A DNA stretch of 64,000 nucleotides from Candidatus Nealsonbacteria bacterium. GTDB taxonomy: Bacteria; Patescibacteriota; Minisyncoccia; Minisyncoccales; MHMH01. The number at the start of each line of letters is the position of its first letter. Positions within the stretch are counted from its first letter, which is position 1. Shown here piece by piece: positions 133 through 58,104 of the stretch. The position numbers were made by a program, and so were the translations under genes. The stretch spans positions 205,197 to 269,196 of the forward strand of contig JACPGX010000001.1 in assembly GCA_016188865.1 (NCBI GenBank), read 5' to 3'. Under the pieces are notes generated by a model. The model was not told the origin of the DNA. It did no database searches and was given only the letters and a program-made list of their open reading frames with translations.

Positions 133-163
133 AAAAATACACCGGTTGAACCGGTGTATTTTT
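133..163. repeat. REP-1 hairpin, 3'-flank copy (aaaaatacaccggtt-g-aaccggtgtattttt)
   Basis: 31-nt perfect palindrome overlapping the RAYT-1 stop codon (162-164). The T-run makes it terminator-like. Confidence 0.9.
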
Positions 164-899
164 ATTCTAAAATTATATTTTTAATTATTTCGAAGCCGGA
201 TTTCAACTCAGTTTTATATAAAATCCAATCTTCAACAGATTTTTTAATTTTATCGGAACTGCCGAAAAATTCTGTAACGAAATCTCTTTTTGTAACTGAC
301 GGAAAATTTGGTATTCCGATATAATCTAAATAGCTAGACCAGCGATATGATTCCAAAAATTTAACAGCTTCCTCAACATCTTTTACTCCCACTTCTTTCC
401 AGTTTTTTTCTAATAATTCAAGCGGATTAGTAAATATATAACAAATCAAAGCCATTAATTGTCTATCATCTTCCACGTGAACTGCTTTAAAACGACCCTG
501 GAATAAAGCGCCAATCCCTTTTCTATTATATTTTTCATTAAAGTATCCAGTATAACCATTAGATAATTTTTTCATGAAAAGAGAAATCCCGCCATCAACT
601 AATTGATGCAAAATTAAATGGTAGTGATTTGGCATCAAACAAAAGCTAATAATCTCTACTAGCGGCTCTCTTTTATCTTTACGATCAGATACACCGGTTG
701 AACCGGTGTATTTCTTATTTTCTTTACGGATTTCTATACGGTCACGCATCTTAACTAATTTTTTATCATTTAATTCATAAAGACAAAAAATAAATCTAAA
801 ATTATCAGAGATTTGCTGAAAAATATTTCTTCTTTCTACTCCCCTATTAAAAATATGATAAATCTGGCCAGTAATAAATTTGGGTCGTTTTATTGCCAT
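162..899 (-). CDS. REP-associated tyrosine transposase-like protein (IS200/Y1 HUH family), paralog 1
   Basis: HUH strand FCLMPNHYHLIL and Tyr helix CYIFTNP. N-terminus MAIKRPKF..GQIYHIFNRG aligns with the paralogs at 26070 and 50608. Start trimmed from 929 to ATG 897-899 by that alignment. Confidence 0.85.
   Translation of the reverse strand: MAIKRPKFITGQIYHIFNRGVERRNIFQQISDNFRFIFCLYELNDKKLVKMRDRIEIRKENKKYTGSTGVSDRKDKREPLVEIISFCLMPNHYHLILHQLVDGGISLFMKKLSNGYTGYFNEKYNRKGIGALFQGRFKAVHVEDDRQLMALICYIFTNPLELLEKNWKEVGVKDVEEAVKFLESYRWSSYLDYIGIPNFPSVTKRDFVTEFFGSSDKIKKSVEDWILYKTELKSGFEIIKNIILE
689..711. repeat. REP-1 hairpin, internal in-frame copy
   Basis: atacaccggtt-g-aaccggtgtat lies inside the RAYT-1 ORF and is translated KYTGSTGVS. 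Confidence 0.9.
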
Positions 900-923
900 A
901 CCTAATTTAATATACCACATAAG

Positions 924-946
924 ATACACCGGTTCAACCGGTGTAT
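924..946. repeat. REP-1 hairpin, 5'-flank copy (loop base c instead of g)
   Basis: atacaccggtt-c-aaccggtgtat lies 24 nt upstream of the RAYT-1 ATG. Confidence 0.9.
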
Positions 947-6871: not shown

Positions 6872-8428
6872 TTATTTATTTTCAACCACCTTCCTGAATT
6901 TTTCAGTCGGAAAAAAGCCCATATACTTTCCCAGCATTAATCTAGTTTGGGCATCAATGGCCGGAATCGCCCCGAAAATCACTAAAGCAACTGGAAGAAA
7001 AAGCCATTGGGTCGCCATTGATAATAACTTTTTACGGGTAAAATGAAAAGCGCTGAAGCGAAGCAATAATGTGCTTACAATAATGCCTGCTACCAAACCT
7101 ACCAATGCTAATGTCATTAAATTGCTAGTTATCTGGGGAAGATTATAAGATAGGACCATTCCATTAAAATCGCTGCGCCCAAGCAGCAAGGGCAGCCAGC
7201 CCAAAAAAAGCAATAATAAGGCATTAGTCCCCCAGGCCCAAAAAGATTCTATCATTAAGAAGGCGTAGCGGAATTTTTTACGTAAAGATATTTTGTTATT
7301 TTTTAGAAATCCGAAAAGCAAATAAGGAATGCCTTCAGAGCCCCAGGCCCAGCGCCGCTGCTGTTTGTATTGATTAATAGCTGTCTGCCATGCATTCTTG
7401 GCAACGCAGGAATCCATTGATAAAGGATAATGAATCGGAATAATTTGGTAATCGCCGTCGTAAAATAAAAAAGCCTTCCAAAAAATTCCTGCGTCTTCTG
7501 AAACCACATTTTTTTGCCAAAAACCAATTTCCACCAATGCTTTAAAGCTCATTGAGTGAGATGAATAAGTGGTCAACTTTTCCGGCCTCTGCTGCTGCAT
7601 CATCTGCCAAAAAACATTAGAGGAAGAAACTATCCTGGAAAAAAATGGGGCCTCCAAAATATTGTTGAAATAAAGGGGAATCGGCTGAAAGCTTGATCTA
7701 ACTGCATCTTTGCTGGTCAAATAGTAGTAAGTCAAACAGTTGAAATATTGAGGATAGACTTGCGTGTCAGCGTCAAAACAGGAAACAATAATATTTTGAT
7801 AAGGAATTTTTAATTTATCGATAATCTCTTTCTTCGCCTGCCTGCCAGCCCAGCTTTCATTGGAACCTTTCCCGGCAATTTCGCCTTCAATGCCTTTGGG
7901 ATGGCGGGTTACCAGTAAACGGAAAAATTTATTTCCAAATTCTTTTTTTATTCCTTCTGCCATCTCTCTTGCTTGCAATTCAGCCCTTTCTTCTGTGGCC
8001 AGCACTGCAATTATTTTATCTTTCGGATATTTGCTGACAGCCAAAGCTTTAAAAGAGCCGCGCATTACTCTTAAATCTTCTTTATATGTCGGAAAAATCA
8101 CCAAATGGTATACTTCTTCCCAATTAGCCGCCGGCAGCTGATTTAATTTCTCTTGCCAATCAATATTTAAATTTTTTTTCATTTGCCTGTATTCTAAAGT
8201 TAAATGCAGCACAAAATGAATAGTCCTTAGCAGCCAATAAACGCAAAATCCGATGATAAAATAAGCAACAAAAACCGGAAAAAGCCAGGAAAAAACAGGC
8301 ATGCCGATTAAAGTGCTCCAAATTAAAACGCCGGGCAAAATTTCAAAAGCCCGATAAACTATTCTTTCTTTTTTATCTTTCAAATCAGTCGCTCTGCCGA
8401 TATTAATGTAATATTTATGAATAACCAT
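6872..8428 (-). CDS. Processive family-2 glycosyltransferase (cellulose/chitin-synthase-like), multi-TM
   Basis: FDADTQ and QQRRWAWG (QxxRW), with TM helices at both ends. Start trimmed to ATG 8426-8428, which overlaps the TAA of the upstream ORF (TAATG). Confidence 0.75.
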   Translation of the reverse strand: MVIHKYYINIGRATDLKDKKERIVYRAFEILPGVLIWSTLIGMPVFSWLFPVFVAYFIIGFCVYWLLRTIHFVLHLTLEYRQMKKNLNIDWQEKLNQLPAANWEEVYHLVIFPTYKEDLRVMRGSFKALAVSKYPKDKIIAVLATEERAELQAREMAEGIKKEFGNKFFRLLVTRHPKGIEGEIAGKGSNESWAGRQAKKEIIDKLKIPYQNIIVSCFDADTQVYPQYFNCLTYYYLTSKDAVRSSFQPIPLYFNNILEAPFFSRIVSSSNVFWQMMQQQRPEKLTTYSSHSMSFKALVEIGFWQKNVVSEDAGIFWKAFLFYDGDYQIIPIHYPLSMDSCVAKNAWQTAINQYKQQRRWAWGSEGIPYLLFGFLKNNKISLRKKFRYAFLMIESFWAWGTNALLLLFLGWLPLLLGRSDFNGMVLSYNLPQITSNLMTLALVGLVAGIIVSTLLLRFSAFHFTRKKLLSMATQWLFLPVALVIFGAIPAIDAQTRLMLGKYMGFFPTEKFRKVVENK

Positions 8429-9009
8429 TATTTCTTGAATTCTTCTTTTGGCTTCAATATGCCGACGGCTGCAGCTAAAATAATTACAATTATTGTGAGA
8501 GTGAAAAATAAACCAATAATCCACAGCCATTCTTTCAATAATGCCAGAGAAAACTTTGCGTATAGCAAGGCGGAAATCATTAAAGCGAACCAGTAATCGA
8601 CTGGCAAATGCAAAAACCATTTTTTATGCCACAAAACATGCTCTCCCCAAAAACTTCTAAAATCGTACTTGGGATTAACAACAAACCACAGGAAATCCCA
8701 GATAATCACAACCAAAAATAGAAAAGAAAGGGCAGTGAATTCTGAAGAAAAATTCCATACTTTTCCAGCGAAATACGGATAATGCATGAAAATAAAAACC
8801 AGGCTAAAAACCAGCAAATGGTAAAGCGTCAATTCCCTGCCGCCCATAAACTTTCCATAAAGACGCGAATACCACTTAGATGAGACGGGCTTCCAAGTAG
8901 GCAAATTAGCCGCCCAGCCGGCTGCGCCCTCTATTTGCGTTTCCAAACCGGCCAGCACCAGACAGAACAAAAAAAGAAAAATAATTTGAATAAATAAATG
9001 AAAATCCAT
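8428..9009 (-). CDS. Polytopic membrane protein, unknown function
   Basis: 193 aa with about 6 hydrophobic segments. Translationally coupled to the GT2 gene. Confidence 0.6.
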   Translation of the reverse strand: MDFHLFIQIIFLFLFCLVLAGLETQIEGAAGWAANLPTWKPVSSKWYSRLYGKFMGGRELTLYHLLVFSLVFIFMHYPYFAGKVWNFSSEFTALSFLFLVVIIWDFLWFVVNPKYDFRSFWGEHVLWHKKWFLHLPVDYWFALMISALLYAKFSLALLKEWLWIIGLFFTLTIIVIILAAAVGILKPKEEFKK

Positions 9010-9025
9010 AAAATTTTATTTGAAT

Positions 9026-9067
9026 GAGGTCCGACCTCCCGACAAATATGACGGGAGGTCGGACCTC
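9026..9067. repeat. PE hairpin element, intergenic copy (gaggtccgacctcccg-10 nt-cgggaggtcggacctc)
   Basis: 16-bp perfect stem. Arms are identical to the copy inside tsaD (34384-34425). Confidence 0.9.
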
Positions 9068-9073
9068 CCAATA

Positions 9074-10084
9074 TTACTGAAACAGCTTTTTGGCTTCTTC
9101 CCAGATTTCTAGCTGATTCTGTTTCTCTTTCATCCAATACCACCATTCTGCTCCCCAGAAATAGATTTCCTTTAAACCTGTATCTCTGGCAAATCTAACA
9201 TTCTTTTGAAACTGCTCTAAACTCATCGTTTTTTTCTGCTCCTCTGGCAGACAATCGGCAATGCCTTGCGGACACCAGGGCTCCGCCTGAAGTTCGCCCA
9301 CAAACACTTCTTTGCCGAAAAATTTCTTTATAATTTGGGCTCTCCTCCAGTAGAAAATAGGCCTCAATGGATAGGTAATATAGGCTTTTATCTCTCCGAA
9401 CAAAACTTTCCGATGTAAGGTGGTGCTGACCATATCTCCCAGTTTAGCTGCTTTAATCCAAAAGGAAAACTCACCGCTGTCAGAAATAATCGCTGGTCTT
9501 GTTGGGTCTAAAGATTTTATCAGTTCTGTCTCTTTTTTCAAGAAATTTTTATCGAGCCTAATTGAGCATTCTCCGAACGGAAAAAATGGCTCATTCTCCA
9601 CCTGCCACGCCCAAATGGTCTTATTATCTTTATATCTATTTATTATTTTTTCTAAATATTCCAATAAAAAATTTCGACTTTTGATCCGCCAGCTGGCGGA
9701 TTGATTCTGAACTCTAATCCATTCAGGTTCATGGCATTCCGGCCAGCGGCCCGTCTTCACGCCAACTACCAGCAAAACATTTATCCCTCTTTTTTGGGCT
9801 TGCTCTATCTGCCAATCTAAATCTCCAAAATCATATTTTCCCTCTTTTTGCTCAATCAAATCCCAAAAAGTCAGTATCTTTATCTTTTTTACTCCAAGTT
9901 CATCGAGTAAAGCCAAATAGGTCCCCTGCCAATCCAACCCTAAATATTTAGCATGCTTTTGGGAAAAATTAACTCCCCAACTGATATCTGCGGCCGGCTT
10001 TACTGTACCAATAGATAAATAGCCGGCAAAAAGCAAAATAATATTTAAAATTCCGAATATAATCATTTTTATGATTCTTCTCAT
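9074..10084 (-). CDS. Membrane-anchored clan GH-A glycoside hydrolase (GH5-like)
   Basis: Signal anchor, WQVENEP acid/base motif, TIM-barrel-like pattern. Confidence 0.6.
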   Translation of the reverse strand: MRRIIKMIIFGILNIILLFAGYLSIGTVKPAADISWGVNFSQKHAKYLGLDWQGTYLALLDELGVKKIKILTFWDLIEQKEGKYDFGDLDWQIEQAQKRGINVLLVVGVKTGRWPECHEPEWIRVQNQSASWRIKSRNFLLEYLEKIINRYKDNKTIWAWQVENEPFFPFGECSIRLDKNFLKKETELIKSLDPTRPAIISDSGEFSFWIKAAKLGDMVSTTLHRKVLFGEIKAYITYPLRPIFYWRRAQIIKKFFGKEVFVGELQAEPWCPQGIADCLPEEQKKTMSLEQFQKNVRFARDTGLKEIYFWGAEWWYWMKEKQNQLEIWEEAKKLFQ

Positions 10085-10994: not shown

Positions 10995-12281
10995 TTAGAT
11001 GATTTGTTCAATATTCATTGTTCCCATTTTTTCTCCCTCAATAAAGCCCTCCATGGCAGCTTCAGCCAGATAGCCCTGCCGGATCCAATCATTAAGCCAC
11101 TGGTAAGCATATCTGGGATTTTCCTGCAGGCTGCCAAAACCTGATTTCAAAAGCCACCTTTTGTTAAATTCTTCCTGAGAACCAATGGGCGGGGCTATAA
11201 TTATGGGCAATCCCAAAGCAGAATAAAAAGAAAGCTCGGATGGCTTAGTCCACAAAATATCGGTTTTTCTCAGAGCTTCATTAAATTTCTGAAAATAATC
11301 TTCGATATTTTCTTCAAAAATAATCTCTATACTAGGATTGCCTTTTAGCTTTAATTTTTCTAAATTATGCTCAAAATATTCCTTAACTTTTTCTTTAATG
11401 CCAGCGACTAAAATCACCTTAAGTTCTTTCGCCCATATTTTTACTACCAGCGATTTAGCAATCTGGATGCCGATTTCTCTCTGAGCCCCGGCTCCTCCAA
11501 CGGCAAACATTATAGTTAAAGGATGGTCCGAAGATGATGGTAAGTTTCCAAGATAGGTTTCAAGCAAATGCTCGTATTTGCTAAGGTATCTTTTTTGCGG
11601 ATCTAAATTTAAAATTCTACTGCCCAAATCATCTTTAAGATTGCGCATTTCTTCCCCGTCAATAATATCTTGGGGCAAGGGATACCCTGTAAAAAAAATA
11701 TTCTCCGACTTTATCCCGTAAGCTTTAAGTCTCTCCACCACCCTAAGATTGGGAGCGCAATACTTTATTCTGCTCCTACCCGGCTCGAGGGGGGCCCAGG
11801 TTCTGGAAATGTCGGCATCGGCAACAACGCAAAAAATCTCGCCAGGGTAATTAAAGTATTCAGCCATAAAAGCTGGCACGAAAAACGTAGTGACAAATGG
11901 CAAATTTCCGTTCCTCAATTTTAATTCTTCAATAAGATGTCTGCCCCAGTTTTTTTTAATCAGGGAGTAAATTTGTTTTAGCTGAATATTCGACTTAGAC
12001 AAGTCTCTTTTGGGATAATAGCTTAAAATTTCTTGAAGCTTATCCATAACGGCAAAAGCCAGCTGACCAATGATGGGAATCCGTTTGATCCGGGAAATAA
12101 ATTCATAAAATTTTCTTGATTTTTCCCAGATATTCCTGTCTTTGGAAGGAATTCCTTCGTAATTGTTGGCATTGATGATTTTTCCCTCCAAAGCCAGGTG
12201 CCTCAAAGGATAAGCAGTCCTTTGGTGCCCGTAACCCATGTTTACCGCTACCACCCAGGCTTTTTTAGTTGTACTTGCCAT
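10995..12281 (-). CDS. GT-B glycosyltransferase, MGDG-synthase/UgtP-like
   Basis: N-terminal VAVNMGYGH motif and a central GGAGAQ. Overlaps the comEC stop by 34 nt. Confidence 0.5.
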   Translation of the reverse strand: MASTTKKAWVVAVNMGYGHQRTAYPLRHLALEGKIINANNYEGIPSKDRNIWEKSRKFYEFISRIKRIPIIGQLAFAVMDKLQEILSYYPKRDLSKSNIQLKQIYSLIKKNWGRHLIEELKLRNGNLPFVTTFFVPAFMAEYFNYPGEIFCVVADADISRTWAPLEPGRSRIKYCAPNLRVVERLKAYGIKSENIFFTGYPLPQDIIDGEEMRNLKDDLGSRILNLDPQKRYLSKYEHLLETYLGNLPSSSDHPLTIMFAVGGAGAQREIGIQIAKSLVVKIWAKELKVILVAGIKEKVKEYFEHNLEKLKLKGNPSIEIIFEENIEDYFQKFNEALRKTDILWTKPSELSFYSALGLPIIIAPPIGSQEEFNKRWLLKSGFGSLQENPRYAYQWLNDWIRQGYLAEAAMEGFIEGEKMGTMNIEQII

Positions 12282-13684
12282 ACACGTTTATTGTACCACC
12301 AAATAAAGCCAAACAGAATGAAATAAAAAACTATCAGCCAAAGCCAGTGCAAATTGCCCACAGCCATGGAAACTAACGGCATTTTGCTAAACCAATCAAC
12401 AATTTTCGTAATATATGTCAAAGAAAGCCAAACGGGCCAAGACAATAAAAACCCAAGAGGTTGCAAGATAATACCGAAAATTGCAAAAATAAAAATTAAG
12501 ATAGTAATTGGAGCCAAAAAGGGAACTATTAAAATATTAACAACAGGACTCAATAAGGATATTCTGCCAAAATTATAAGCTAAAATCGGCAAAGTAAAAA
12601 CTTGGGCCGAAAGAGTAGCAGATAAAGTGGTTCTTAATGGAAAAACTTTTGGATTAGGTAAAAGCCTTAGCCAATTTGAAAAATACGGCTCTAAATAAAT
12701 AAGGCCTAAAATGGCTAAAAAAGAAAGCTGGAAACCTACGTCTTTCGTCAAGAGAAAAGGATTTTGAACAAGCATAAAAGTTGCCGCAAAAAATACCGCT
12801 CTTGAGCCGGATGACATGCGTCCTAATTTTTTAGCTAAAATAAAAATAACGGCCATAATAAAAGCCCTGACAGCTGAAGCCTGGGCTCCGATCATTAAAA
12901 TGTAAAGAAAAAGCAAAACTATCGAAATATAAAACGGCGCAAAGGAAGATATTATAGAAGAAATAATGGTTATATTCATTCCGGAAACCGCCGCAATATG
13001 GCGGGTGCCGGTAATATTGAGCTTGTCTTTCCATTCTCGGGAAATATTAGATTCTTGGCCGAAAACTAATGCCTCCAAAAAACCTTCTTGCGGCGGCGAA
13101 ATAAAAGAACCGGCGGTATCTCTAAATTTATTTTTAAAAGATAAAATAATTTCCATTATCGGGTTGCCAAACCCGGAACTCATAAACTCAATTTTTGGAA
13201 AACTCATTACTGCCGTAATGCCGTCTTTTTTAAGATAATCACGATAGTTAAAATCATCGAAAACCGGCGGCATTTCCAAACGGCCAATAATTTTTAGTCT
13301 ATCCCCATAATTATATTTCGGATACCTCCCCGCCGTCACCAAAATCGGGCGAGAACCGTTCTCGCCCGATTTTATCACAAGCTTTATGCTAGCAGGCCTG
13401 ACATCGGGTTCTTTAACCACGATTCCGACAAACTCGACATTCCCTTCTTGGGGATAAACAATTTTTGACTCCGCCATCTGATACCGCCAAATTCCCAAAA
13501 CTAAAAACAGTAAGCAAAATCCGCCCGTAGCCAGTTTTTTATAACGCCAAAAAATTGAAATTAAAAATACTCCAATAATTAAAAAACCCAGTAAAAATAA
13601 CTGGGGCATAAAAATAAATGAACTCGCAAAAATTCCTCCTACAAACGCCAGACAAAAATACAAAAATATCCGCGACTTAGTCAT
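12248..13684 (-). CDS. comEC: ComEC/Rec2 DNA-uptake channel protein (no metallo-beta-lactamase domain)
   Basis: N-terminal TM plus OB-like region, HIAAVSGMNITI, many TM segments. Confidence 0.85.
   Translation of the reverse strand: MTKSRIFLYFCLAFVGGIFASSFIFMPQLFLLGFLIIGVFLISIFWRYKKLATGGFCLLFLVLGIWRYQMAESKIVYPQEGNVEFVGIVVKEPDVRPASIKLVIKSGENGSRPILVTAGRYPKYNYGDRLKIIGRLEMPPVFDDFNYRDYLKKDGITAVMSFPKIEFMSSGFGNPIMEIILSFKNKFRDTAGSFISPPQEGFLEALVFGQESNISREWKDKLNITGTRHIAAVSGMNITIISSIISSFAPFYISIVLLFLYILMIGAQASAVRAFIMAVIFILAKKLGRMSSGSRAVFFAATFMLVQNPFLLTKDVGFQLSFLAILGLIYLEPYFSNWLRLLPNPKVFPLRTTLSATLSAQVFTLPILAYNFGRISLLSPVVNILIVPFLAPITILIFIFAIFGIILQPLGFLLSWPVWLSLTYITKIVDWFSKMPLVSMAVGNLHWLWLIVFYFILFGFIWWYNKRVWQVQLKKPGW
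13341..13373. repeat. REP-3-like hairpin variant in-frame in comEC (aaaatcgggcgagaac-c-gttctcgcccgatttt)
   Basis: 33-nt perfect palindrome translated KSGENGSRPIL. It shares the core cgagaaccgttctcg with REP-3. Confidence 0.85.
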
Positions 13685-13777: not shown

Positions 13778-13823
13778 AAAAAATCGTATTATTATTGCCA
13801 TGGCTTTAATTTTACGATTTTTT
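13778..13823. repeat. Imperfect palindrome aaaaaatcgta..gccatggc..tacgatttttt at the 3' end of the 13822-14400 gene
   Basis: Related to the palindrome at 14414-14449. Could act as a terminator and/or a second operator. Confidence 0.6.
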
Positions 13824-14400
13824 ATAAATTAAACGCTTTCCTTAGCTCTCTGTCATCGCCCAAATTTTCAGCTACCACCAAACGCAACTCTTTTTCTAGC
13901 AAACCAAAAAATGTCCGCAATAAATCTATCTCAGCCCGACAATCGAAAGGATAAACCCAAATGCTTTTCTGAAACTGATAAAATCCCAATGTCTTTAATT
14001 TACTTCTGAAAGCATCTCGATGAAACTTTTTAAGTTGGGCGATGTCAAACATTACCATTCTCCATTTATCGTCCCACTTCTTTGGTTTGGCAATTTTTAA
14101 ATTATCGATCTGCAGCCATCCGGCTTTTTTCTTTCCTTCCCTTGTCAGAGAAATGCATATTTGGTGATTATTTTCTTGAATATTAATTAACCCTTGTTTT
14201 CTAAAATGATAGAAAGTATCAGAAACTTTCTGCTTGGGATATTTTTTAAATTTTTGGTGATATTTTAAAAGATTGGTTAGAAAACAGGGTGAAGTAGCCG
14301 CAATAGACACCGCTCCAGCGATCATTAACCAGCGAAAGATGTCTTTCCCAATTTCCGATTTTGGTTTTGTAAAATAATATTTATATTTTCTTATACTCAT
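13822..14400 (-). CDS. PaaX-like / Cas2-fold domain protein with N-terminal TM and wHTH-like segment
   Basis: WRMVMFDI..LKTLGFYQFQKSIWVYP resembles the Cas2/PaaX_C ferredoxin-fold pattern. No SD sequence before the ATG. Confidence 0.5.
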   Translation of the reverse strand: MSIRKYKYYFTKPKSEIGKDIFRWLMIAGAVSIAATSPCFLTNLLKYHQKFKKYPKQKVSDTFYHFRKQGLINIQENNHQICISLTREGKKKAGWLQIDNLKIAKPKKWDDKWRMVMFDIAQLKKFHRDAFRSKLKTLGFYQFQKSIWVYPFDCRAEIDLLRTFFGLLEKELRLVVAENLGDDRELRKAFNL

Positions 14401-14413
14401 ATTAATAAATAAT

Positions 14414-14449
14414 ATCGTATAATTAACGCCATGGCAATAATTATACGAT
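14414..14449. promoter_or_regulatory. 36-nt near-perfect palindrome (atcgtataatta..gccatggc..taattatacgat); candidate operator over the promoter
   Basis: Lies 14-49 nt upstream of the ATG at 14400 and contains TATAAT-like boxes. Confidence 0.5.
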
Positions 14450-14522
14450 AAATATTATGAATTATCCGTTACTGCTTACCTAAAAATAAAAAAGTGTCGA
14501 AATGACACTCCTTTGGCTACTC

Positions 14523-22575: not shown

Positions 22576-23037
22576 ATGTTAATCGTCGGTCTGGGCAATC
22601 CGGGGAAAAAGTATAAAAATACCCGGCATAATGTCGGCCATATGGTTATTGATGAATTAGAGAAAGAAAATCTCGATGGTTTTACTTTGGCAAAAACCGA
22701 TGCTTTTATGAATGAATCCGGTATGGCAGTTAAAAAATTAACTAAAAACTATAAACTAAAAACCATAAACCTGGTTATAGTTCACGACGATATTGATTTG
22801 CCTTTAGGTGAATTCAAAATACAGAAAGGCCGGGGAGCAGCCGGACACAAGGGCGTGCAATCGGTTATAAATGAATTAAAAACAAAAGATTTTTGGCGAG
22901 TACGAATCGGCATCTGCCCCAAGGGGGGAAAACCTGCAAATGTTGAAAAATTCGTTTTGCAAAACTTCACCAAAGAAGAACAAAAAATTCTAACTGGAAT
23001 AATTTCCGAAATCCCAAATTACCTCCCGAAGGTGTAG
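22576..23037 (+). CDS. pth: Peptidyl-tRNA hydrolase (short, 153 aa)
   Basis: GLGNPG..Y..TRHNVG and HDDIDLPLG. The last 5 codons lie in the hairpin at 23021-23055. Confidence 0.88.
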   Translation: MLIVGLGNPGKKYKNTRHNVGHMVIDELEKENLDGFTLAKTDAFMNESGMAVKKLTKNYKLKTINLVIVHDDIDLPLGEFKIQKGRGAAGHKGVQSVINELKTKDFWRVRIGICPKGGKPANVEKFVLQNFTKEEQKILTGIISEIPNYLPKV

Positions 23038-23055
23038 CGTAAACCTTCGGGAGGT
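23021..23055. repeat. 13-bp perfect hairpin acctcccgaaggt/accttcgggaggt spanning the pth stop codon
   Basis: The left arm encodes ..YLPKV and the stop codon sits in the loop. Confidence 0.8.
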
Positions 23056-23079
23056 GAACGCTGATGGATTTCGGAAATC

Positions 23080-23973: not shown

Positions 23974-24009
23974 TGTGTACTATATATCACATATAGATGG
24001 AAAAGTCAA
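23958..24009. promoter_or_regulatory. Face-to-face promoters sharing one palindromic -10 box: TTGACA-17-TATATA-17-AGTCAA
   Basis: Plus strand: -35 at 23958-63 and -10 at 23981-86, driving mfd (ATG 23997). Minus strand: -35 is revcomp of 24004-09 with the same -10, driving the NUDIX leader. Confidence 0.55.
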
Positions 24010-26024
24010 CGGTGCCGGGTGTTAAATCGATTCTAATCGTCAGTATCAACCCCTACTTTTTAGACAGGGAGAATTTTTGGTTTGAAGAAAATATCAAACA
24101 AATACTGGAAGCGCGGAAAAATCAAACCTTCTTTCAAGATAATACCATATATGTAGACGTAGAAAAAAGCCCCGCCTTCGCCAAGGCTTCGGCGGGCAAG
24201 CAGAAAATTAAGCTTTCTGAATTTTTAAGAAAAATTGATGAAATGGGCTATGAAAAAGTTCAAAAGGTCTCCGAGCCCGGAGAATTTTCCCGCCAAGGAG
24301 GAATTATTGATATTTTCCCGTTAAATATAAATTGTGCCGTTAGAATTGAATTTTTCGGCAACTCAATAGAAAACATGGAAAAACTGCCCATTATTATTGA
24401 AAATGAAAAAGAAATCAAAGAAAGAATAAAAAATAAACTGAAAAGGCAGAAAATTTACTCGCAATTGGGAACATTAAAGCCGGGTGATTATTTGGTGCAT
24501 CTAGACCACGGCGTCGGAATTTACAGAGGTCGGACCTCCCAAGGAGGTCCGACCTCAAACGACTCAAACGATTACTACACATTGGAATATGCCCAGAACG
24601 ATAAACTCTATGTTCCGATTGGGCTGGAAAGAAAACTTTCAAGATATGTTGGATTTTCAGAGCCGAAAATATCGCGGCTAAGCTCGCCCGTCTGGATAAA
24701 CACCAAAAGAAAAATTAAAGAAGAAACTGAAAAACTAGCTAAAGAACTTTTGGAAATTTACGCCCAGAGAGAAATTTCAACTCGCCCATATTATATAGAA
24801 GATACGGAAATTGACGCCTTGCTGGCAAGTACTTTTGTTCACGAAGAAACTCCGGATCAAATCCAAGCCATGGAAGAAATTAAAAAAGATTTGGAAGAAA
24901 AAGAAGAGCCAATGGACAGAATTGTTTGCGGCGACGTGGGTTTTGGCAAAACTGAAATTGCCTTAAGGACCATTATTAAAGCGGTCAATTCCGGATATCA
25001 ATCGGCTTTGATTTGCCCAACCACTATTTTGGCCTCGCAGCATTGCCAGACTTTCCAAAAAAGAATTGGTGATCTTCCGATAAAAGTTGAATTATTAAGC
25101 CGTCTTCAATCAAAGAGGGAGCAGAAACAAATAATTCAAAATATCAAAGATGGCAAAACAGATATCGTTATAGGAACCCACCGCCTTTTATCAAATGACG
25201 TTAACTTTAAAAACTTAGGATTGCTGGTTATTGACGATGAACAAAGATTCGGAGTCAGGCAGAAAGAAAAATTAAAAAAAATAAGGACTTCCCTAGATGT
25301 TTTATCGCTTTCAGCCACGCCAATTCCCAGAACCCTCTACTTGGCCATGTCTTCTTTAAAAGATATCAGCATAATTCAAACGCCGCCTGCTCAACGGCTT
25401 CCGATTAAAACTTTGGTAAAACCATGGTCAAAAGAAATCATTAAAAAGGCAATTCAGGAAGAAATTTCGCGCAACGGCCAAGTTTATTACCTGCACAATC
25501 GCGTAGAAACTATTGAAACAGCAAAAAAATTGCTGGAAGATTTACTGCCGAAAGTAAAATTTGGAATTATCCACGGCAAAATGGAAGAAAAAAATTTAAT
25601 AAAGATAATGGATGATTTTACCAATAAAAAAATTGGCGTTTTAATCGCTACCACCATTATTGAAAACGGCCTGGACCTGCCCAATGTCAACACTTTAATT
25701 GCGGCCAATGCCGCCAAACTCGGACTTTCCCAGGCATATCAAATAAGAGGCAGAATCGGCAGGTCGCACATTCAGGCATTCGCTTATTTCTTGCATGGCG
25801 GCAATCTTTCTGAGCTAGCAAAGGAAAGATTAAGAGCTTTAAAAGAGGCGGAAGAGCTTGGTTCGGGATACCGAATTGCCATGAAAGATTTGGAACTTCG
25901 GGGCGCCGGCAACATTCTAGGAAAAGAGCAATCAGGCAACATCAACCATGTGGGACTGAATCTATATTGTCAAATGTTATCCGATGCGATTGAAAAACTG
26001 AAGGCTTACGATTATAATAAATAA
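23997..26024 (+). CDS. mfd: Transcription-repair coupling factor Mfd (short form, 675 aa)
   Basis: RNAP-interaction module PGDYLVHLDHGVGIY, helicase motifs DVGFGKTE and DDEQRFG, and a TRG-like region. Confidence 0.9.
   Translation: MEKSTVPGVKSILIVSINPYFLDRENFWFEENIKQILEARKNQTFFQDNTIYVDVEKSPAFAKASAGKQKIKLSEFLRKIDEMGYEKVQKVSEPGEFSRQGGIIDIFPLNINCAVRIEFFGNSIENMEKLPIIIENEKEIKERIKNKLKRQKIYSQLGTLKPGDYLVHLDHGVGIYRGRTSQGGPTSNDSNDYYTLEYAQNDKLYVPIGLERKLSRYVGFSEPKISRLSSPVWINTKRKIKEETEKLAKELLEIYAQREISTRPYYIEDTEIDALLASTFVHEETPDQIQAMEEIKKDLEEKEEPMDRIVCGDVGFGKTEIALRTIIKAVNSGYQSALICPTTILASQHCQTFQKRIGDLPIKVELLSRLQSKREQKQIIQNIKDGKTDIVIGTHRLLSNDVNFKNLGLLVIDDEQRFGVRQKEKLKKIRTSLDVLSLSATPIPRTLYLAMSSLKDISIIQTPPAQRLPIKTLVKPWSKEIIKKAIQEEISRNGQVYYLHNRVETIETAKKLLEDLLPKVKFGIIHGKMEEKNLIKIMDDFTNKKIGVLIATTIIENGLDLPNVNTLIAANAAKLGLSQAYQIRGRIGRSHIQAFAYFLHGGNLSELAKERLRALKEAEELGSGYRIAMKDLELRGAGNILGKEQSGNINHVGLNLYCQMLSDAIEKLKAYDYNK
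24526..24556. repeat. PE hairpin element, short-loop copy in-frame in mfd (gaggtcggacctcc-caa-ggaggtccgacctc)
   Basis: 14-bp perfect stem translated RGRTSQGGPTS. The arm sequence matches the copies at 9026 and 34384. Confidence 0.9.
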
Positions 26025-26030
26025 ATTATC

Positions 26031-26057
26031 AATCTTACGAGGCGAAGCCTCGTAAAT
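26031..26057. repeat. REP-2 hairpin, 5'-flank copy (ttacgaggc-gaa-gcctcgtaa)
   Basis: Lies 12 nt upstream of the RAYT-2 ATG. Confidence 0.9.
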
Positions 26058-26069
26058 TCGTAAATTTTA

Positions 26070-26783
26070 ATGAAGAGAGTAATATTCGCCAAAGATCAAA
26101 TCTATCATGTTTATAATCGCGGTGTAGAAAAACGAAATATCTTTTTAGATGATAAAGATTATTTTCGGTTTATTCACAATCTCTTTGAATTTAACGATGA
26201 AAAACCAGCAGAAAATATTTATTATAAACAACCAATGCTTCAGTCGCAGAAAATACAATCTTACGAGGCTTCGCCTCGTAAGATTAATATGCCTAGAAAA
26301 TTACTAGTAGAAATTATGGCATTTTGTCTGATGCCCAATCACTATCATTTATTGCTAAGACAAAAACAAGATAGGGGGATCACCAGATTTATGCAAAAAT
26401 TAGGTACTGGATATTCTATGTATTTTAATCAAAAGCACGAAAGAACCGGAATTTTATTCCAGGGACCGTTCAAGGCCATTTTAGTCGATAGGGAAACTTA
26501 TTTTTATTATTTACCATATTACATTCACTTTAATCCCCTAGATTTGATTGAGCCAGAATGGAGAAATGGCAAAATTAATAATTACAAAGAAGCCTTAAAT
26601 TTTCTGGAAAATTATCGCTGGTCAAGCCATCTTGATTATATTGGCAAGAAAAATTTTCCCTCGGTGACCCAACGGGAATTTCTTTTAGAATACCATCAAA
26701 ATGGAAACCGATATAAACAATCTATTGAAAATTGGCTAAAAGAAATACAACTAGAAAAAATAAAAGATATAATGCTGGAATAA
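26070..26783 (+). CDS. REP-associated tyrosine transposase-like protein (IS200/Y1 HUH family), paralog 2
   Basis: DQIYHVYNRG, FCLMPNHYHLLL, YYIHFNP. Confidence 0.85.
   Translation: MKRVIFAKDQIYHVYNRGVEKRNIFLDDKDYFRFIHNLFEFNDEKPAENIYYKQPMLQSQKIQSYEASPRKINMPRKLLVEIMAFCLMPNHYHLLLRQKQDRGITRFMQKLGTGYSMYFNQKHERTGILFQGPFKAILVDRETYFYYLPYYIHFNPLDLIEPEWRNGKINNYKEALNFLENYRWSSHLDYIGKKNFPSVTQREFLLEYHQNGNRYKQSIENWLKEIQLEKIKDIMLE
26257..26285. repeat. REP-2 hairpin, internal in-frame copy (loop inverted: ttc)
   Basis: aatcttacgaggc-ttc-gcctcgtaagatt, translated QSYEASPRKI. Confidence 0.9.
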
Positions 26784-26811
26784 ATCTTACGAGGCGAAGC
26801 CTCGTAAGATT
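26783..26811. repeat. REP-2 hairpin, 3'-flank copy
   Basis: aatcttacgaggc-gaa-gcctcgtaagatt, starting at the last base of the stop codon. Confidence 0.9.
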
Positions 26812-33586: not shown

Positions 33587-34648
33587 TTAGGAGATCCGTA
33601 AATTAGCTTCGGCTTTAATATTTTTTCTGACGTCTTTTCTGTGGAAATAAGCAGTTGCGGCCACCATTGCGGCATTGTCGGTGCACAAATTTTTTGGCGG
33701 AACCAAAAAATTTAGTTTATAGTTTAGAGTTTTTAGTTTATAGTCGAATTGTTTTCTTAACTCTTCATTCGCTGCTACGCCGCCTCCAAGAATGATTGAT
33801 TTTACTCCAAAATCCCTTGCTGCCTTTATGGTCTTATGCATCAAAACATCAATTATCGCCTGCTGAACTTCGTAACACATCTCTATTTTATCATAATTAC
33901 CCTTTTTTACTTTATATAATACGGCTGTTTTAAGACCGGAAAAACTAAAATCATAATTTTTTTGCCTAATCATCGGCCTCGGCAGTTGGTCGGAAACCCG
34001 ACGTCCGACCATTTTTGCGGCTGTGGCTGCAATAGCTGGGCCACCGGGATAGCCGAGGCCTAAAATCCTGGCAACCTTATCAAGGCATTCGCCAGCTGCG
34101 TCATCACGAGTTTCGCCTATTAATTTATATTTTCCGATAGCTTTCATCAAAACTAACTGCGTATGCCCACCCGACACCACCAAAGCCACCGCCGGAAAAA
34201 CTATTGAGGCCGGGCCTCCATAGTGTTCGCTAATGAAATTGGCGAGAATGTGCGCTTCGATGTGGTTGACTGAAATTAATGATTTTTTATATTTTTTTGC
34301 AATTTCTTTGGCAAAGTTGATCCCCTGCCATAAACAGGGTTCTAATCCTGGGCCGACGGTCACGGTGACGAAATCAATTTTTAGAGGTCCGACCTCCCGT
34401 AATATTTTTCGGGAGGTCGGACCTCCTAATATTCTCAAAACTTTTTCAAAGACAACCGGTAAATTCTTTTGATGCTCGCGTTTCGCTAAGAAGGGATAAA
34501 CCCCTCCATATTTTGCGTGGATTTTCACTTGCGAAGAGACTGTATTTGATATAATTTTGAAATTAGAATTTTTTACTTCCAGTAAAGCAATGGCTGTATC
34601 ATCGCAGGAAGTGTCAATTCCTAATATCTTAATATTTTGGGAGGCCAT
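33587..34648 (-). CDS. tsaD: tRNA N6-adenosine threonylcarbamoyltransferase TsaD
   Basis: GIDTSCDDT, VNHIEAH, CTDNAAM. Confidence 0.95.
   Translation of the reverse strand: MASQNIKILGIDTSCDDTAIALLEVKNSNFKIISNTVSSQVKIHAKYGGVYPFLAKREHQKNLPVVFEKVLRILGGPTSRKILREVGPLKIDFVTVTVGPGLEPCLWQGINFAKEIAKKYKKSLISVNHIEAHILANFISEHYGGPASIVFPAVALVVSGGHTQLVLMKAIGKYKLIGETRDDAAGECLDKVARILGLGYPGGPAIAATAAKMVGRRVSDQLPRPMIRQKNYDFSFSGLKTAVLYKVKKGNYDKIEMCYEVQQAIIDVLMHKTIKAARDFGVKSIILGGGVAANEELRKQFDYKLKTLNYKLNFLVPPKNLCTDNAAMVAATAYFHRKDVRKNIKAEANLRIS
34384..34425. repeat. PE hairpin element, in-frame copy inside tsaD
   Basis: gaggtccgacctcccg-10 nt-cgggaggtcggacctc, translated GGPTSRKILREVGP. This gives about 11 extra residues relative to E. 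coli TsaD as recalled. Confidence 0.9.
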
Positions 34649-35154
34649 ATGGTTAAATCAATAACTTTTGATGGTTTGGCTTTTTTAAGATTGCCAGCAT
34701 CAACCGCCAAGTCGGGCTGATGCCTTTTGCCTTCAAATTGTTTTATCACTTCTTTAATTTTCGTTGAAGCCGGCTGGCCTGATATATTCGCCGAAGTTTC
34801 CGCCAAAGGGCCCGTGTGCTTGACTAAGTCAAGCACAAATTTATAGTTAGGAATGCGAATACCGGGCTTTTTATAATGAAAAACCGCTGTCACCGGCCCC
34901 GGCCAAACTCGTTTAAGAAATTTTTCCTGTCTGGGATTGATCTCGGCTAATTTTTTAGCCATTTTGATATCGCTGACAAAAATAGGTATCAATTTATTTT
35001 TGGGCCTCTTTTTTATTTTATATAATCTTGCAACCGCTTCTTTATTCCCGGCATCGCAAATCAACCCGTAAACTGTATCGGTGGGACAAATAATCACTTT
35101 GCCCTCCTTTATGGCCTTAATTACTTTTTTAAGATTTGGCTTGGTAATCTCCAT
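34621..35154 (-). CDS. tsaC: L-threonylcarbamoyladenylate synthase (TsaC/YrdC/Sua5 family)
   Basis: PTDTVYGL and SANISG. Confidence 0.9.
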   Translation of the reverse strand: MEITKPNLKKVIKAIKEGKVIICPTDTVYGLICDAGNKEAVARLYKIKKRPKNKLIPIFVSDIKMAKKLAEINPRQEKFLKRVWPGPVTAVFHYKKPGIRIPNYKFVLDLVKHTGPLAETSANISGQPASTKIKEVIKQFEGKRHQPDLAVDAGNLKKAKPSKVIDLTIWPPKILRY

Positions 35155-50576: not shown

Positions 50577-50607
50577 AAAACTGACGAGAACCGTTCTCGT
50601 CAGTTTT
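50577..50607. repeat. REP-3 hairpin, 3'-flank copy (aaaactgacgagaac-c-gttctcgtcagtttt)
   Basis: Ends one base before the RAYT-3 stop codon. Preceded by a partial duplicate, ctgacgaaaa. Confidence 0.9.
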
Positions 50608-51333
50608 TTATTCGATGGCAACACGTTGAGAATCAGCTAATTCTTTTTTGAACTGAAGCCAATCGTTAACGAATCTTTGCCCTTCGCCCGCTCCGCCGAC
50701 TGTTTCAAATAAAAACTCTCTGCTGGTTACTGAAGGAAAATTCCTCTTGCCTAAATAGTCAGAATAACTTGACCATCGGTAATTTTCTAAAAATTCTATT
50801 ATTTCTTGCAATTTCCTGCCGCTAATTCCCCTTTCCTTCCAATTCTGAACTAAAATTGCCACTGGGTTTGTATGAATATAAACGAAAACTGTTATTAATT
50901 GTTTATCATCTTTAACGTGGACTATTTTATATTTTCCCTGAAACAGGTGGCCACTTCTTTTATATTTTTTATTATAATATCCGCCGTATCCCGCCCCAAT
51001 TTTTCTCATAAACTTGCTTATTCCTCCATTTCTTAACTGTCTTACCAGCAGATGCGCGTGATTCGGCATCAAACAAAACGCTAAAATCTCCAATAAACAT
51101 TCCCTGCCCGTATGTCTTTTATACGAACTATCTAAACTGACGAGAACGGTTCTCGTCAGTTTTTGTTCTTGACGATAGTATGAAGAAGTAGGTTTTTCAT
51201 CATTGAATTCAAATAAATCATGAATCATTCTAAAATAATCTTTTTGATCTTTGAAAAGCTTTAACCCTTCTACGGCTCTAATAACGATGTGATAAATTTC
51301 GCCGTTTACTAATGGTGGTCGTTTTATTGGCAT
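50608..51333 (-). CDS. REP-associated tyrosine transposase-like protein (IS200/Y1 HUH family), paralog 3
   Basis: GEIYHIVIRA, FCLMPNHAHLLV, VYIHTNP. Confidence 0.85.
   Translation of the reverse strand: MPIKRPPLVNGEIYHIVIRAVEGLKLFKDQKDYFRMIHDLFEFNDEKPTSSYYRQEQKLTRTVLVSLDSSYKRHTGRECLLEILAFCLMPNHAHLLVRQLRNGGISKFMRKIGAGYGGYYNKKYKRSGHLFQGKYKIVHVKDDKQLITVFVYIHTNPVAILVQNWKERGISGRKLQEIIEFLENYRWSSYSDYLGKRNFPSVTSREFLFETVGGAGEGQRFVNDWLQFKKELADSQRVAIE
51134..51162. repeat. REP-3 hairpin, internal in-frame copy (centre g)
   Basis: aaactgacgagaac-g-gttctcgtcagttt, translated KLTRTVLVSL. Confidence 0.9.
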
Positions 51334-51364
51334 AAAACTGACGAGAACCGTTCTCGTCAGTTTT
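51334..51364. repeat. REP-3 hairpin, 5'-flank copy
   Basis: Starts at the base next to the ATG (51331-33), leaving no room for an SD sequence. Confidence 0.9.
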
Positions 51365-51401
51365 ATTATAACGGAATAAATTTAAATGAAAAGCCCTGAG
51401 C

Positions 51402-57958: not shown

Positions 57959-58041
57959 ATTATATTCACCTCCTTTTTAATGTGCCGCATAATTATAGAG
58001 TACATCTTAGTTCAACGCAAAAAATCTGTCAAGACATCGTA

Positions 58042-58087
58042 TTACGAGACCCGGACTCGTAAAAAATTACGAGTCCGGATCTCGTAA
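58042..58087. repeat. Inverted REP doublet (REPIN-like): ttacgag-acccgga-ctcgtaa / ttacgag-tccggat-ctcgtaa
   Basis: The two hairpins are reverse complements of each other apart from one base. Their stems equal the REP-2 stem. Confidence 0.8.
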
Positions 58088-58104
58088 AACTAGCGGAAAC
58101 CGAA

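Follow-up and report, generated by a model that had tools for sequence, protein, structure and literature searches.

A 42-nucleotide (nt) hairpin lies in frame within tsaD, the essential tRNA-modification gene for tRNA N6-adenosine threonylcarbamoyltransferase, in the 64,000-nt genome stretch of an ultra-small Candidatus Nealsonbacteria bacterium analysed here (the window). This hairpin is probably a REPIN-type element of a Patescibacteria-wide family of repetitive extragenic palindromes (REPs) tied to transposases that resemble the REP-associated tyrosine transposases (RAYTs), and TsaD appears to tolerate it as a disordered loop. In the mechanism that we propose, the cognate enzyme would be a RAYT-like transposase of the Y1 HUH type acting on single-stranded DNA hairpins, and one copy would have come to rest in tsaD where the gene specifies the linker joining helix 52-73 to strand 93-98. 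TsaD would then tolerate the translated element as a disordered surface loop of 12 residues. All frames of the core are free of stop codons and the net gain is 36 nt, so tsaD stays open.

The tsaD hairpin (34384-34425) had originally been predicted to be identical to an intergenic copy at 9026-9067. In both, the 16-nt arm GAGGTCCGACCTCCCG and its reverse complement CGGGAGGTCGGACCTC enclose 10 nt without an arm mismatch (9026-9041/9052-9067 and 34384-34399/34410-34425), but the loops are unlike, ACAAATATGA in the intergenic copy versus TAATATTTTT in tsaD, and the identity is therefore limited to the arms. Matches to the arm with three mismatches or fewer number 10 in the window, compared with 0.08 expected from 100 shuffles. 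Each arm contains a 13-nt palindrome of its own, GAGGTC-S-GACCTC; six exact 13-nt cores are present in the window, all of them paired, where 0.37 would be expected. The 42-nt hairpin is best described as an inverted, REPIN-like doublet of the 13-nt core hairpin GAGGT-NNN-ACCTC. RNA fold energies of the three doublets in the window range from -32 to -39 kcal/mol (z = -6.9 to -8.5), with a 17-bp RNA hairpin of -36.7 kcal/mol (z = -7.8) for the tsaD copy and -39.4 kcal/mol for the intergenic copy. The latter occupies most of a 64-nt spacer between two minus-strand open reading frames (ORFs), a GH-like ORF at 9074-10084 and a membrane-protein ORF at 8428-9009. An intrinsic terminator was rejected, as the elements have T-rich flanks 5' and A-rich flanks 3', which is the reverse order, and the 9026-9067 copy has no T-run directly after it. 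A ribosome-binding site at 9026-9067 was also rejected, since its GGAGGT lies 24 nt ahead of the next ATG and is too distant. An Rfam scan of the entire window returned one tRNA only, with no match at the elements.

The assignment of the host gene as tsaD was borne out: the 353-residue product of 33587-34648 (minus strand) is intact, matches Pfam TsaD at 3.9e-76 and Thermotoga maritima TsaD (PDB 6n9a) at 3e-74, and keeps the catalytic, metal-binding and nucleotide-binding motifs NHIEAH (128), SGGHT (159) and CTDNAAM (322). The peptide LGGPTSRKILREVGPLK is read in frame in tsaD, and the doublet itself, on the coding (minus) strand, reads GGA GGT CCG ACC TCC CGA AAA ATA TTA CGG GAG GTC GGA CCT, which translates to GGPTSRKILREVGP. 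Alignment with 6n9a places a 12-residue gap exactly at LGGPTSRKILRE. The nearest of 120 TsaD homologues (P0002, 75% identity) has LRML-GP-LKIDF where the window has LRIL-GGPTSRKILREVGP-LKIDF, and at the DNA level its contig (L005) reads TTA GGA CCT CTA AAA, compared with TTA GGA, 36 further nt and GGA CCT CTA AAA in the window. The net gain relative to L005 is thus 36 nt or 12 codons, which is less than the 14-codon palindrome.

An AlphaFold model of TsaD built with 57 homologues (mean predicted local distance difference test score, pLDDT, 89.4; predicted template modelling score, pTM, 0.89) shows residues 74-92 as coil with pLDDT of about 59-66, situated between helix 52-73 and strand 93-98. 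A surface-linker loop is supported by this model. The predicted in-frame insertion into a surface linker therefore stands, given the L005 sequence without the 12 codons and the low-pLDDT coil; only its length shifts, from about 11 residues to 12. Judging from the reading frame, the segment GGPTSRKILREVG is probably translated as part of TsaD and neutral or nearly so. In a second loop, tsaD has one unpaired core of variant sequence, GAGGCCGGGCCTC (34206-34218, read as HYGGPAS), with C-G in place of the T-A pair of GAGGT/ACCTC. The GGPAS residues fall at about 144-148, with a pLDDT of 66 over residues 141-150; T. maritima TsaD has a 5-residue gap at this place and homologue P0005 has GGSTS. TsaD homologues show assorted short repeat-like inserts at both loops (GGSTS, NSKFKIQNSK, NFQFPISNFQ, QAQGK...), and this suggests that repeat elements may drive TsaD loop-length variation in this clade. 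Upstream of tsaD, a Sua5/TsaC-type gene (34621-35154, minus strand) overlaps the tsaD start by 28 nt (34621-34648), so that these two t6A-pathway genes are probably co-translated.

Related metagenome-assembled genomes (MAGs) carry further versions of the tsaD element. In GCA_016181985 (protein P0004, sequence L004), a 42-nt palindromic variant, GAGGTTCGACCTCCCGAGAAATTTCTCGAGAGGTCGAACCTC, ends at the same right-hand junction in tsaD. It differs from the window copy at 7 positions, 4 of which make up two compensating stem pairs (window to L004: C6-G37 to T6-A37 and A18-T25 to G18-C25), and these paired changes alter the peptide from P to S and from G to E. P0004 is also the only protein found with a similar peptide at this site, and its DNA is likewise a 42-nt palindrome; the original prediction had named conservation of the peptide in distant TsaD proteins without the palindrome as evidence against an inserted element, and no such case was seen. 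In the gene for P0003 this site is occupied by GAGGCCTGGCCTC-GCAAGC-GAGTCCGGACCTC, a decayed or variant pair.

The third doublet of the window, a 31-nt version (GAGGTCGGACCTCC-CAA-GGAGGTCCGACCTC, 24526-24556, -32.1 kcal/mol), lies in frame in mfd and encodes RGRTSQGGPTS. Its host is a short form of the Mfd-like transcription-repair coupling factor (23997-26024, plus strand, 675 residues), which matches E. coli Mfd (6x26) at 6.7e-156. The doublet is placed in a loop of the RNA-polymerase-interacting (CarD_TRCF) domain that comprises 8 residues (GIGRFAGFSNDYY) in the closest orthologues versus 18 (GVGIYRGRTSQGGPTSNDSNDYY) in the window. Many further Nealsonbacteria Mfd proteins, orthologues of 69-77% identity, have retained the element as RGRTS..GGPTS or RGSTS..GGRTS variants or in worn-down form. 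Comparison of the window with L068 revealed a compensating pair in mfd as well (CGG/CCG to CGA/TCG).

To define the family, one genome per species was scanned for two cores 3-30 nt apart, which gave at least 119 loci, and 131 doublets were analysed. The loci are nearly all from Patescibacteria of many classes, with a few from Omnitrophota, Elusimicrobia and others. The following figures apply to the matches listed, whose Patescibacteria labels include Saccharibacteria, Paceibacterota, Moran-, Levy-, Curtiss-, Jorgensen-, Nealson- and Wolfe-bacteria and others. Inverted doublets predominate (113 of 131, with 14 direct and 4 other), the middle triplets of the core are TCA/TGA, TCG/CGA or CCG/CGG, and spacers and flanks are variable. 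One or two core types per genome are usual. About half of the doublets (65 of 131) lie well inside ORFs, defined as at least 25 codons within an ORF of at least 150 residues, versus 66% of random positions. All three reading frames are in use, giving EVxP (50), GxTS (49) and RxxL (29). GTAG, CTAC, CGTC or GACG within 10 nt of a doublet was each found for only 2-3 of 128. The motif AATATT looked promising as an element-adjacent signal in the window, yet it is present in just 6 of 262 flanks against a background of 1% and was discarded.

Multi-locus genomes contain 4-9 cores in the sampled fragments, and L129 has four doublets in 10.5 kb. A Pfam scan of ten host ORFs identified nine recognisable conserved genes, namely LigA (twice), UvrA (twice), PolA, LeuRS, LepA, AcrB and O-antigen ligase, and one TPR-repeat protein. 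The in-frame doublets are located at 1683-1731 of L037 and 3807-3844 of L062 for LigA, in L116 and L118 for UvrA, in L091 for PolA, in L075 for LeuRS and in L047 for LepA. Both LigA copies occupy the same site, in MAGs of two phyla-level groups, Jorgensenbacteria and Nealsonbacteria. The subfamily with the exact 16-nt arm was found in five JGI contigs, one of which (L128) carries a 42-mer that is 100% identical to 9026-9067. Some genomes show either a longer stem, built by the flanks and capped with the 13-nt core (for example GAGAAC-core-GTTCTC), or three-core arrays (L074 3357-3396, L102 4290-4327 and 5794-5831, L031 4011-4068), and the architecture of the family is therefore more varied than a simple doublet. 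Among 2.9 million viral contigs only one doublet match was obtained (L135 13160-13199, from an IMG/VR giant-virus MAG), which could reflect chance or contamination, and carriage by phages was accordingly dismissed.

Three divergent RAYT-like genes lie in the 64 kb, and each is bracketed by a cognate hairpin of its own that recurs in frame within the coding sequence. The first (26070-26783, plus strand, 237 residues) scores 34.1 bits against Pfam Y1_Tnp (cut-off 23) and 35.8 bits against NCBIfam REP_Tyr_transpos (cut-off 80), and its hairpin, CTTAC-GAGGC-NNN-GCCTC-GTAAG, is found at 26035-26055 (5'), 26257-26285 (in frame, SYEASPRKI) and 26783-26811 (3'). The second (50608-51333, minus strand, 241 residues) is accompanied by CTGACGAGAAC-N-GTTCTCGTCAG at 51332-51366 (5'), 51134-51162 (in frame, KLTRTVLVS) and 50577-50607 (3'). 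For the third (162-929, minus strand; 255 residues as listed, with the true start probably at an internal MAIKRP), the hairpin ATACACCGGTT-N-AACCGGTGTAT occurs at 924-946 (5'), 689-711 (in frame, KYTGSTGVS) and 133-163 (3'). In all three proteins the internal hairpin falls at the same position, a disordered loop at about residues 54-73, just before LVEI..FCLMPNHYHLL. The same layout of internal and flanking hairpins is present in L117, L129, L131 and L133, and 20 of 120 database homologues imply it as well, their loop at about position 60 reading SYEV[EQRG]PRKI, that is, CTTAC-GAGGTNNNACCTC-GTAAG. We found no description in the literature of an internal cognate hairpin in RAYT genes; it could be an autoregulatory or recognition site.

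The GAGGT core itself is physically linked to such genes. L131 and L133 have CTTAC-GAGGTTSAACCTC-GTAAG upstream of and inside the transposase gene, and L133 has it downstream too. In L009, the ORF adjoining the element encodes a Y1 (IS200-like) transposase with GGGAGAGGTCGAACCTCTCCC at both flanks, and L042 has a Y1_Tnp gene with GAGGT doublets at both flanks; further homologues are encoded in L066, L117 and L129. The EV[EQRG]P loops of the homologues, together with the hairpin DNA of two genes, thus indicate that the GAGGT core is cognate to a large clade of RAYT-like proteins. These proteins score 27.6-45.5 bits against Pfam Y1_Tnp, all above the 23-bit cut-off, and both the NH[YFA]H motif and Y151 (of the YIHxNP motif) are invariant in a 47-sequence alignment (A3). 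A sequence search of the PDB with one RAYT-like protein returned only unrelated proteins (E = 0.41 and 0.69). Foldseek analysis of the AlphaFold model of the 50608-51333 product (pLDDT 82) gave as its best match 4er8_A (E = 1e-5), a structure of E. coli TnpA-REP in complex with a REP hairpin; the TnpA structures of ISDra2 and IS608 came next.

Several observations weigh against the proposal that a RAYT-linked element inserted into tsaD and is passively tolerated there. Translation of the tsaD insert is a working reading of the DNA sequence. The 'empty' L005 site retains GGACCTC, so that insertion in the window is indistinguishable from partial deletion in L005, and the neighbour-joining tree of TsaD, with 76-81% identity throughout, lacks the depth needed for ordering gains and losses. 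The paired changes at orthologous copies preserve the stem and alter the peptide, which is not obviously expected of a purely neutral passenger. Across the family there is neither a target-site duplication nor a conserved flanking tag, the flanks being only T-rich 5' and A-rich 3'. On the enzyme side, the sole NCBIfam family match of the RAYT-like proteins, the equivalog REP_Tyr_transpos (NF047646), reaches 25-45 bits against a cut-off of 80 bits, and a profile comparison with solved TnpA proteins yields marginal E values (0.03-0.6). The 64-kb window contains no RAYT gene with GAGGTC-type flanks, the three present having other hairpins; it is therefore by inference from the wider family that a RAYT is taken to have moved, or to maintain, the tsaD copy.

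The paired changes could instead mean that the hairpin is selected as a nucleic acid, either as a RAYT-binding or regulatory site in DNA or mRNA or as an mRNA structure setting the pace of translation or shielding the transcript, with the peptide as a by-product. We consider this unlikely, although it is compatible with a mobile origin. Selection of this kind would account for the stems preserved at orthologous tsaD and mfd sites while amino acids change, for the conversion of GAGGT/ACCTC into GAGGC/GCCTC at the second tsaD site, for the persistence of the mfd element in Nealsonbacteria and for the in-frame hairpin at one shared position in every RAYT-like gene of the window. However, the elements occupy unrelated genes at sites that are no more than variable loops, close orthologues manage without the element, and the order of the T-rich and A-rich flanks is the opposite of that in an intrinsic terminator. 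Moreover, the paired changes fit the core type of each genome, which concerted evolution or re-insertion would explain equally well. The paired stem changes in tsaD and mfd, the persistence in Nealsonbacteria Mfd and the in-frame cognate hairpin of RAYT-like genes also led us to consider that the intragenic GAGGT-NNN-ACCTC structure is more than a passenger and is kept by selection or by ongoing RAYT-driven conversion. This is doubtful at present, but if true it would amount to a domesticated hairpin/transposase system that works inside coding sequences throughout the candidate phyla radiation (CPR).

The insert might also be absent from the protein, through ribosome bypass from a GGA take-off codon to a GGA landing codon 36 nt downstream or through removal from the mRNA. 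Identical GGA codons do bracket the 36-nt difference from L005, with a very stable hairpin between them and a Shine-Dalgarno-like GGAGGT directly ahead of the second GGA. Yet the first GGA is followed by an open segment, free of stop codons and frame breaks, whose length is a multiple of three, and the repeated GGA is a trivial outcome of the palindrome's own ends. The intragenic doublets, in ORFs of at least 150 residues, are each spanned by one open frame, by definition. All ten copies tightly sandwiched between ORFs, and thus candidates for split genes, separate two different complete genes according to Pfam (for example DnaK/DnaJ, TrpA/NTP-transferase and NusA/H+-PPase). As frame-breaking copies were not found, bypassing or splicing is not supported, and we regard it as highly improbable. 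Local formation of the palindromes, where short inverted motifs undergo template switching or hairpin-primed repair, would make the likeness between copies a mutational bias; half a core (GGACCTC) already present at the L005 site, the lack of target-site duplications and the wide variation of spacers and flanks are all in keeping with this. It would not readily produce identical 16-nt arms at two loci of one genome and in five metagenome contigs, the recurrence of the same 10 specified bases across phyla or the physical association of the core with RAYT-like genes, and we give it little credence. An assembly or binning chimera, which the original prediction had named as a possible undoing of the insert, has only the general risk of repeats in metagenome assemblies in its favour. 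Three separate per-run Logan assemblies (SRR12113419, SRR12113420 and SRR12113424) match the window with 100% identity across 2.4-2.7 kb that span the insert, which argues that no chimera is involved, and the independent MAG GCA_016181985 has its 42-nt variant at the same junction; a chimera is thus close to inconceivable.

Other palindromes in the window do not share the GAGGT core. A perfect 33-nt hairpin, AAAATCGGGCGAGAAC-G-GTTCTCGCCCGATTTT (13341-13373), encodes IKSGENGSRPIL in frame within a ComEC-like membrane protein (minus strand, ORF 12248-13684). Its REP family is not that of the tsaD element, and its core, CGAGAAC-N-GTTCTCG, resembles the hairpin that accompanies the RAYT-like gene at 50608-51333. 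A TTACGAG...CTCGTAA doublet is located at 58039-58090, outside long ORFs. An ORF at 13822-14400 is bordered by two A+T-rich palindromes (13778-13823 and 14401-14462), and the 3' end of ORF 22576-23037 has a nested palindrome that includes ACCTCCCGAAGGT (23002-23078).

If the tsaD hairpin is a RAYT-linked REP doublet, as we favour, its main interest lies in the candidate enzyme. The core hairpin physically flanks RAYT-like Y1 transposase genes, so that the entry and persistence of repeats in genes become addressable with a defined protein and a 13-nt substrate. Surface-loop length variation in conserved Patescibacteria proteins such as TsaD, Mfd, LigA, UvrA, PolA, LeuRS and ComEC may largely stem from repeat elements, which bears on alignments, phylogenies and structure predictions. 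For annotation, peptide words such as GGPTS, GRTS, EVEP, RSDL and the like are repeat-derived and not functional motifs. In-frame palindromic insertion as such is already published for Rickettsia and Opitutus, and this precedent in other bacteria limits the surprise; the present case adds another lineage and another repeat family. The expectation that the phenomenon would be new in this lineage agrees with our literature search, which found no paper linking CPR/Patescibacteria to palindromic, REP, RAYT or miniature inverted-repeat transposable (MITE) elements, but its coverage was incomplete and the negative therefore counts as absence of evidence only. A literature search for the core sequences returned only unrelated primers.

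Among known systems with hairpins inside coding sequence, the GC clusters or 'byp' elements of yeast mitochondria and the bypass of phage T4 gene 60 break the frame or introduce stop codons, and the ribosome skips them. The elements described here resemble them as G+C-rich hairpins inside the coding sequence of an A+T-rich genome and in the matched codons around the hairpin (in tsaD, GGA, 36 nt and GGA), but every copy examined here stays in frame. A closer parallel is the Rickettsia palindromic element (RPE), of which RPE-1 is about 100-150 bp long and encodes tens of residues. We know of no dedicated transposase for RPE, nor of an enzyme tied to in-frame palindromic insertions. Both groups consist of palindromic repeats that lie between genes and also in frame in conserved, apparently functional genes, to which they add a peptide (RPE as described in PMC3733652). 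The RPE-like behaviour that had been proposed is indeed what we observe, a dispersed palindrome in frame in an intact TsaD that is absent from the closest orthologue, and it extends to mfd and comEC, with the inserts of the window in predicted surface loops. Set against RPE by description, the units here differ in being 13-42 nt long and in being tied to RAYT-like genes.

RPE is not the only precedent, as had been assumed. Intragenic REPs, both single and dimeric, have been reported in Opitutus terrae, Rickettsia conorii, Thioalkalivibrio, Xanthomonas and others, where they encode 20-30 residues and where many of the hosts are repair or translation genes, including uvrA, uvrB, DNA ligase and tRNA synthetases (Di Nocera et al. 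2013, PMC3733652). The GAGGT family likewise contributes singles and dimers in frame to ORFs and has repair and translation hosts (Mfd, UvrA, LigA, PolA, LeuRS), but it lacks the defining tags, has a much higher intragenic share and occurs in other lineages. The most extensive likeness is to the REP/REPIN-RAYT systems of E. coli and Pseudomonas, in the arrangement described in PMC3733652 and PMC5581495. Shared features are short imperfect palindromes that mostly form inverted doublets folding as one larger hairpin, several divergent paralogues per genome, each with its own repeat, and a Y1 HUH fold whose best PDB match is TnpA-REP (4er8). Transposase genes flanked by cognate palindromes, another trait of those systems, were seen with the GAGGT core in L009, L042, L131 and L133 and with three other hairpin types in the window, but not with the GAGGTC type in these 64 kb. 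In contrast to those systems, the GAGGT family has no GTAG or CGTC tag beside the hairpin, its core is only 13 nt, and with about half of the listed copies inside genes it is not predominantly extragenic. The protein, of about 235 residues with a C-terminal extension, falls below the NCBIfam equivalog cut-off, a third cognate hairpin lies in frame within the transposase gene, and the host lineage is Patescibacteria.

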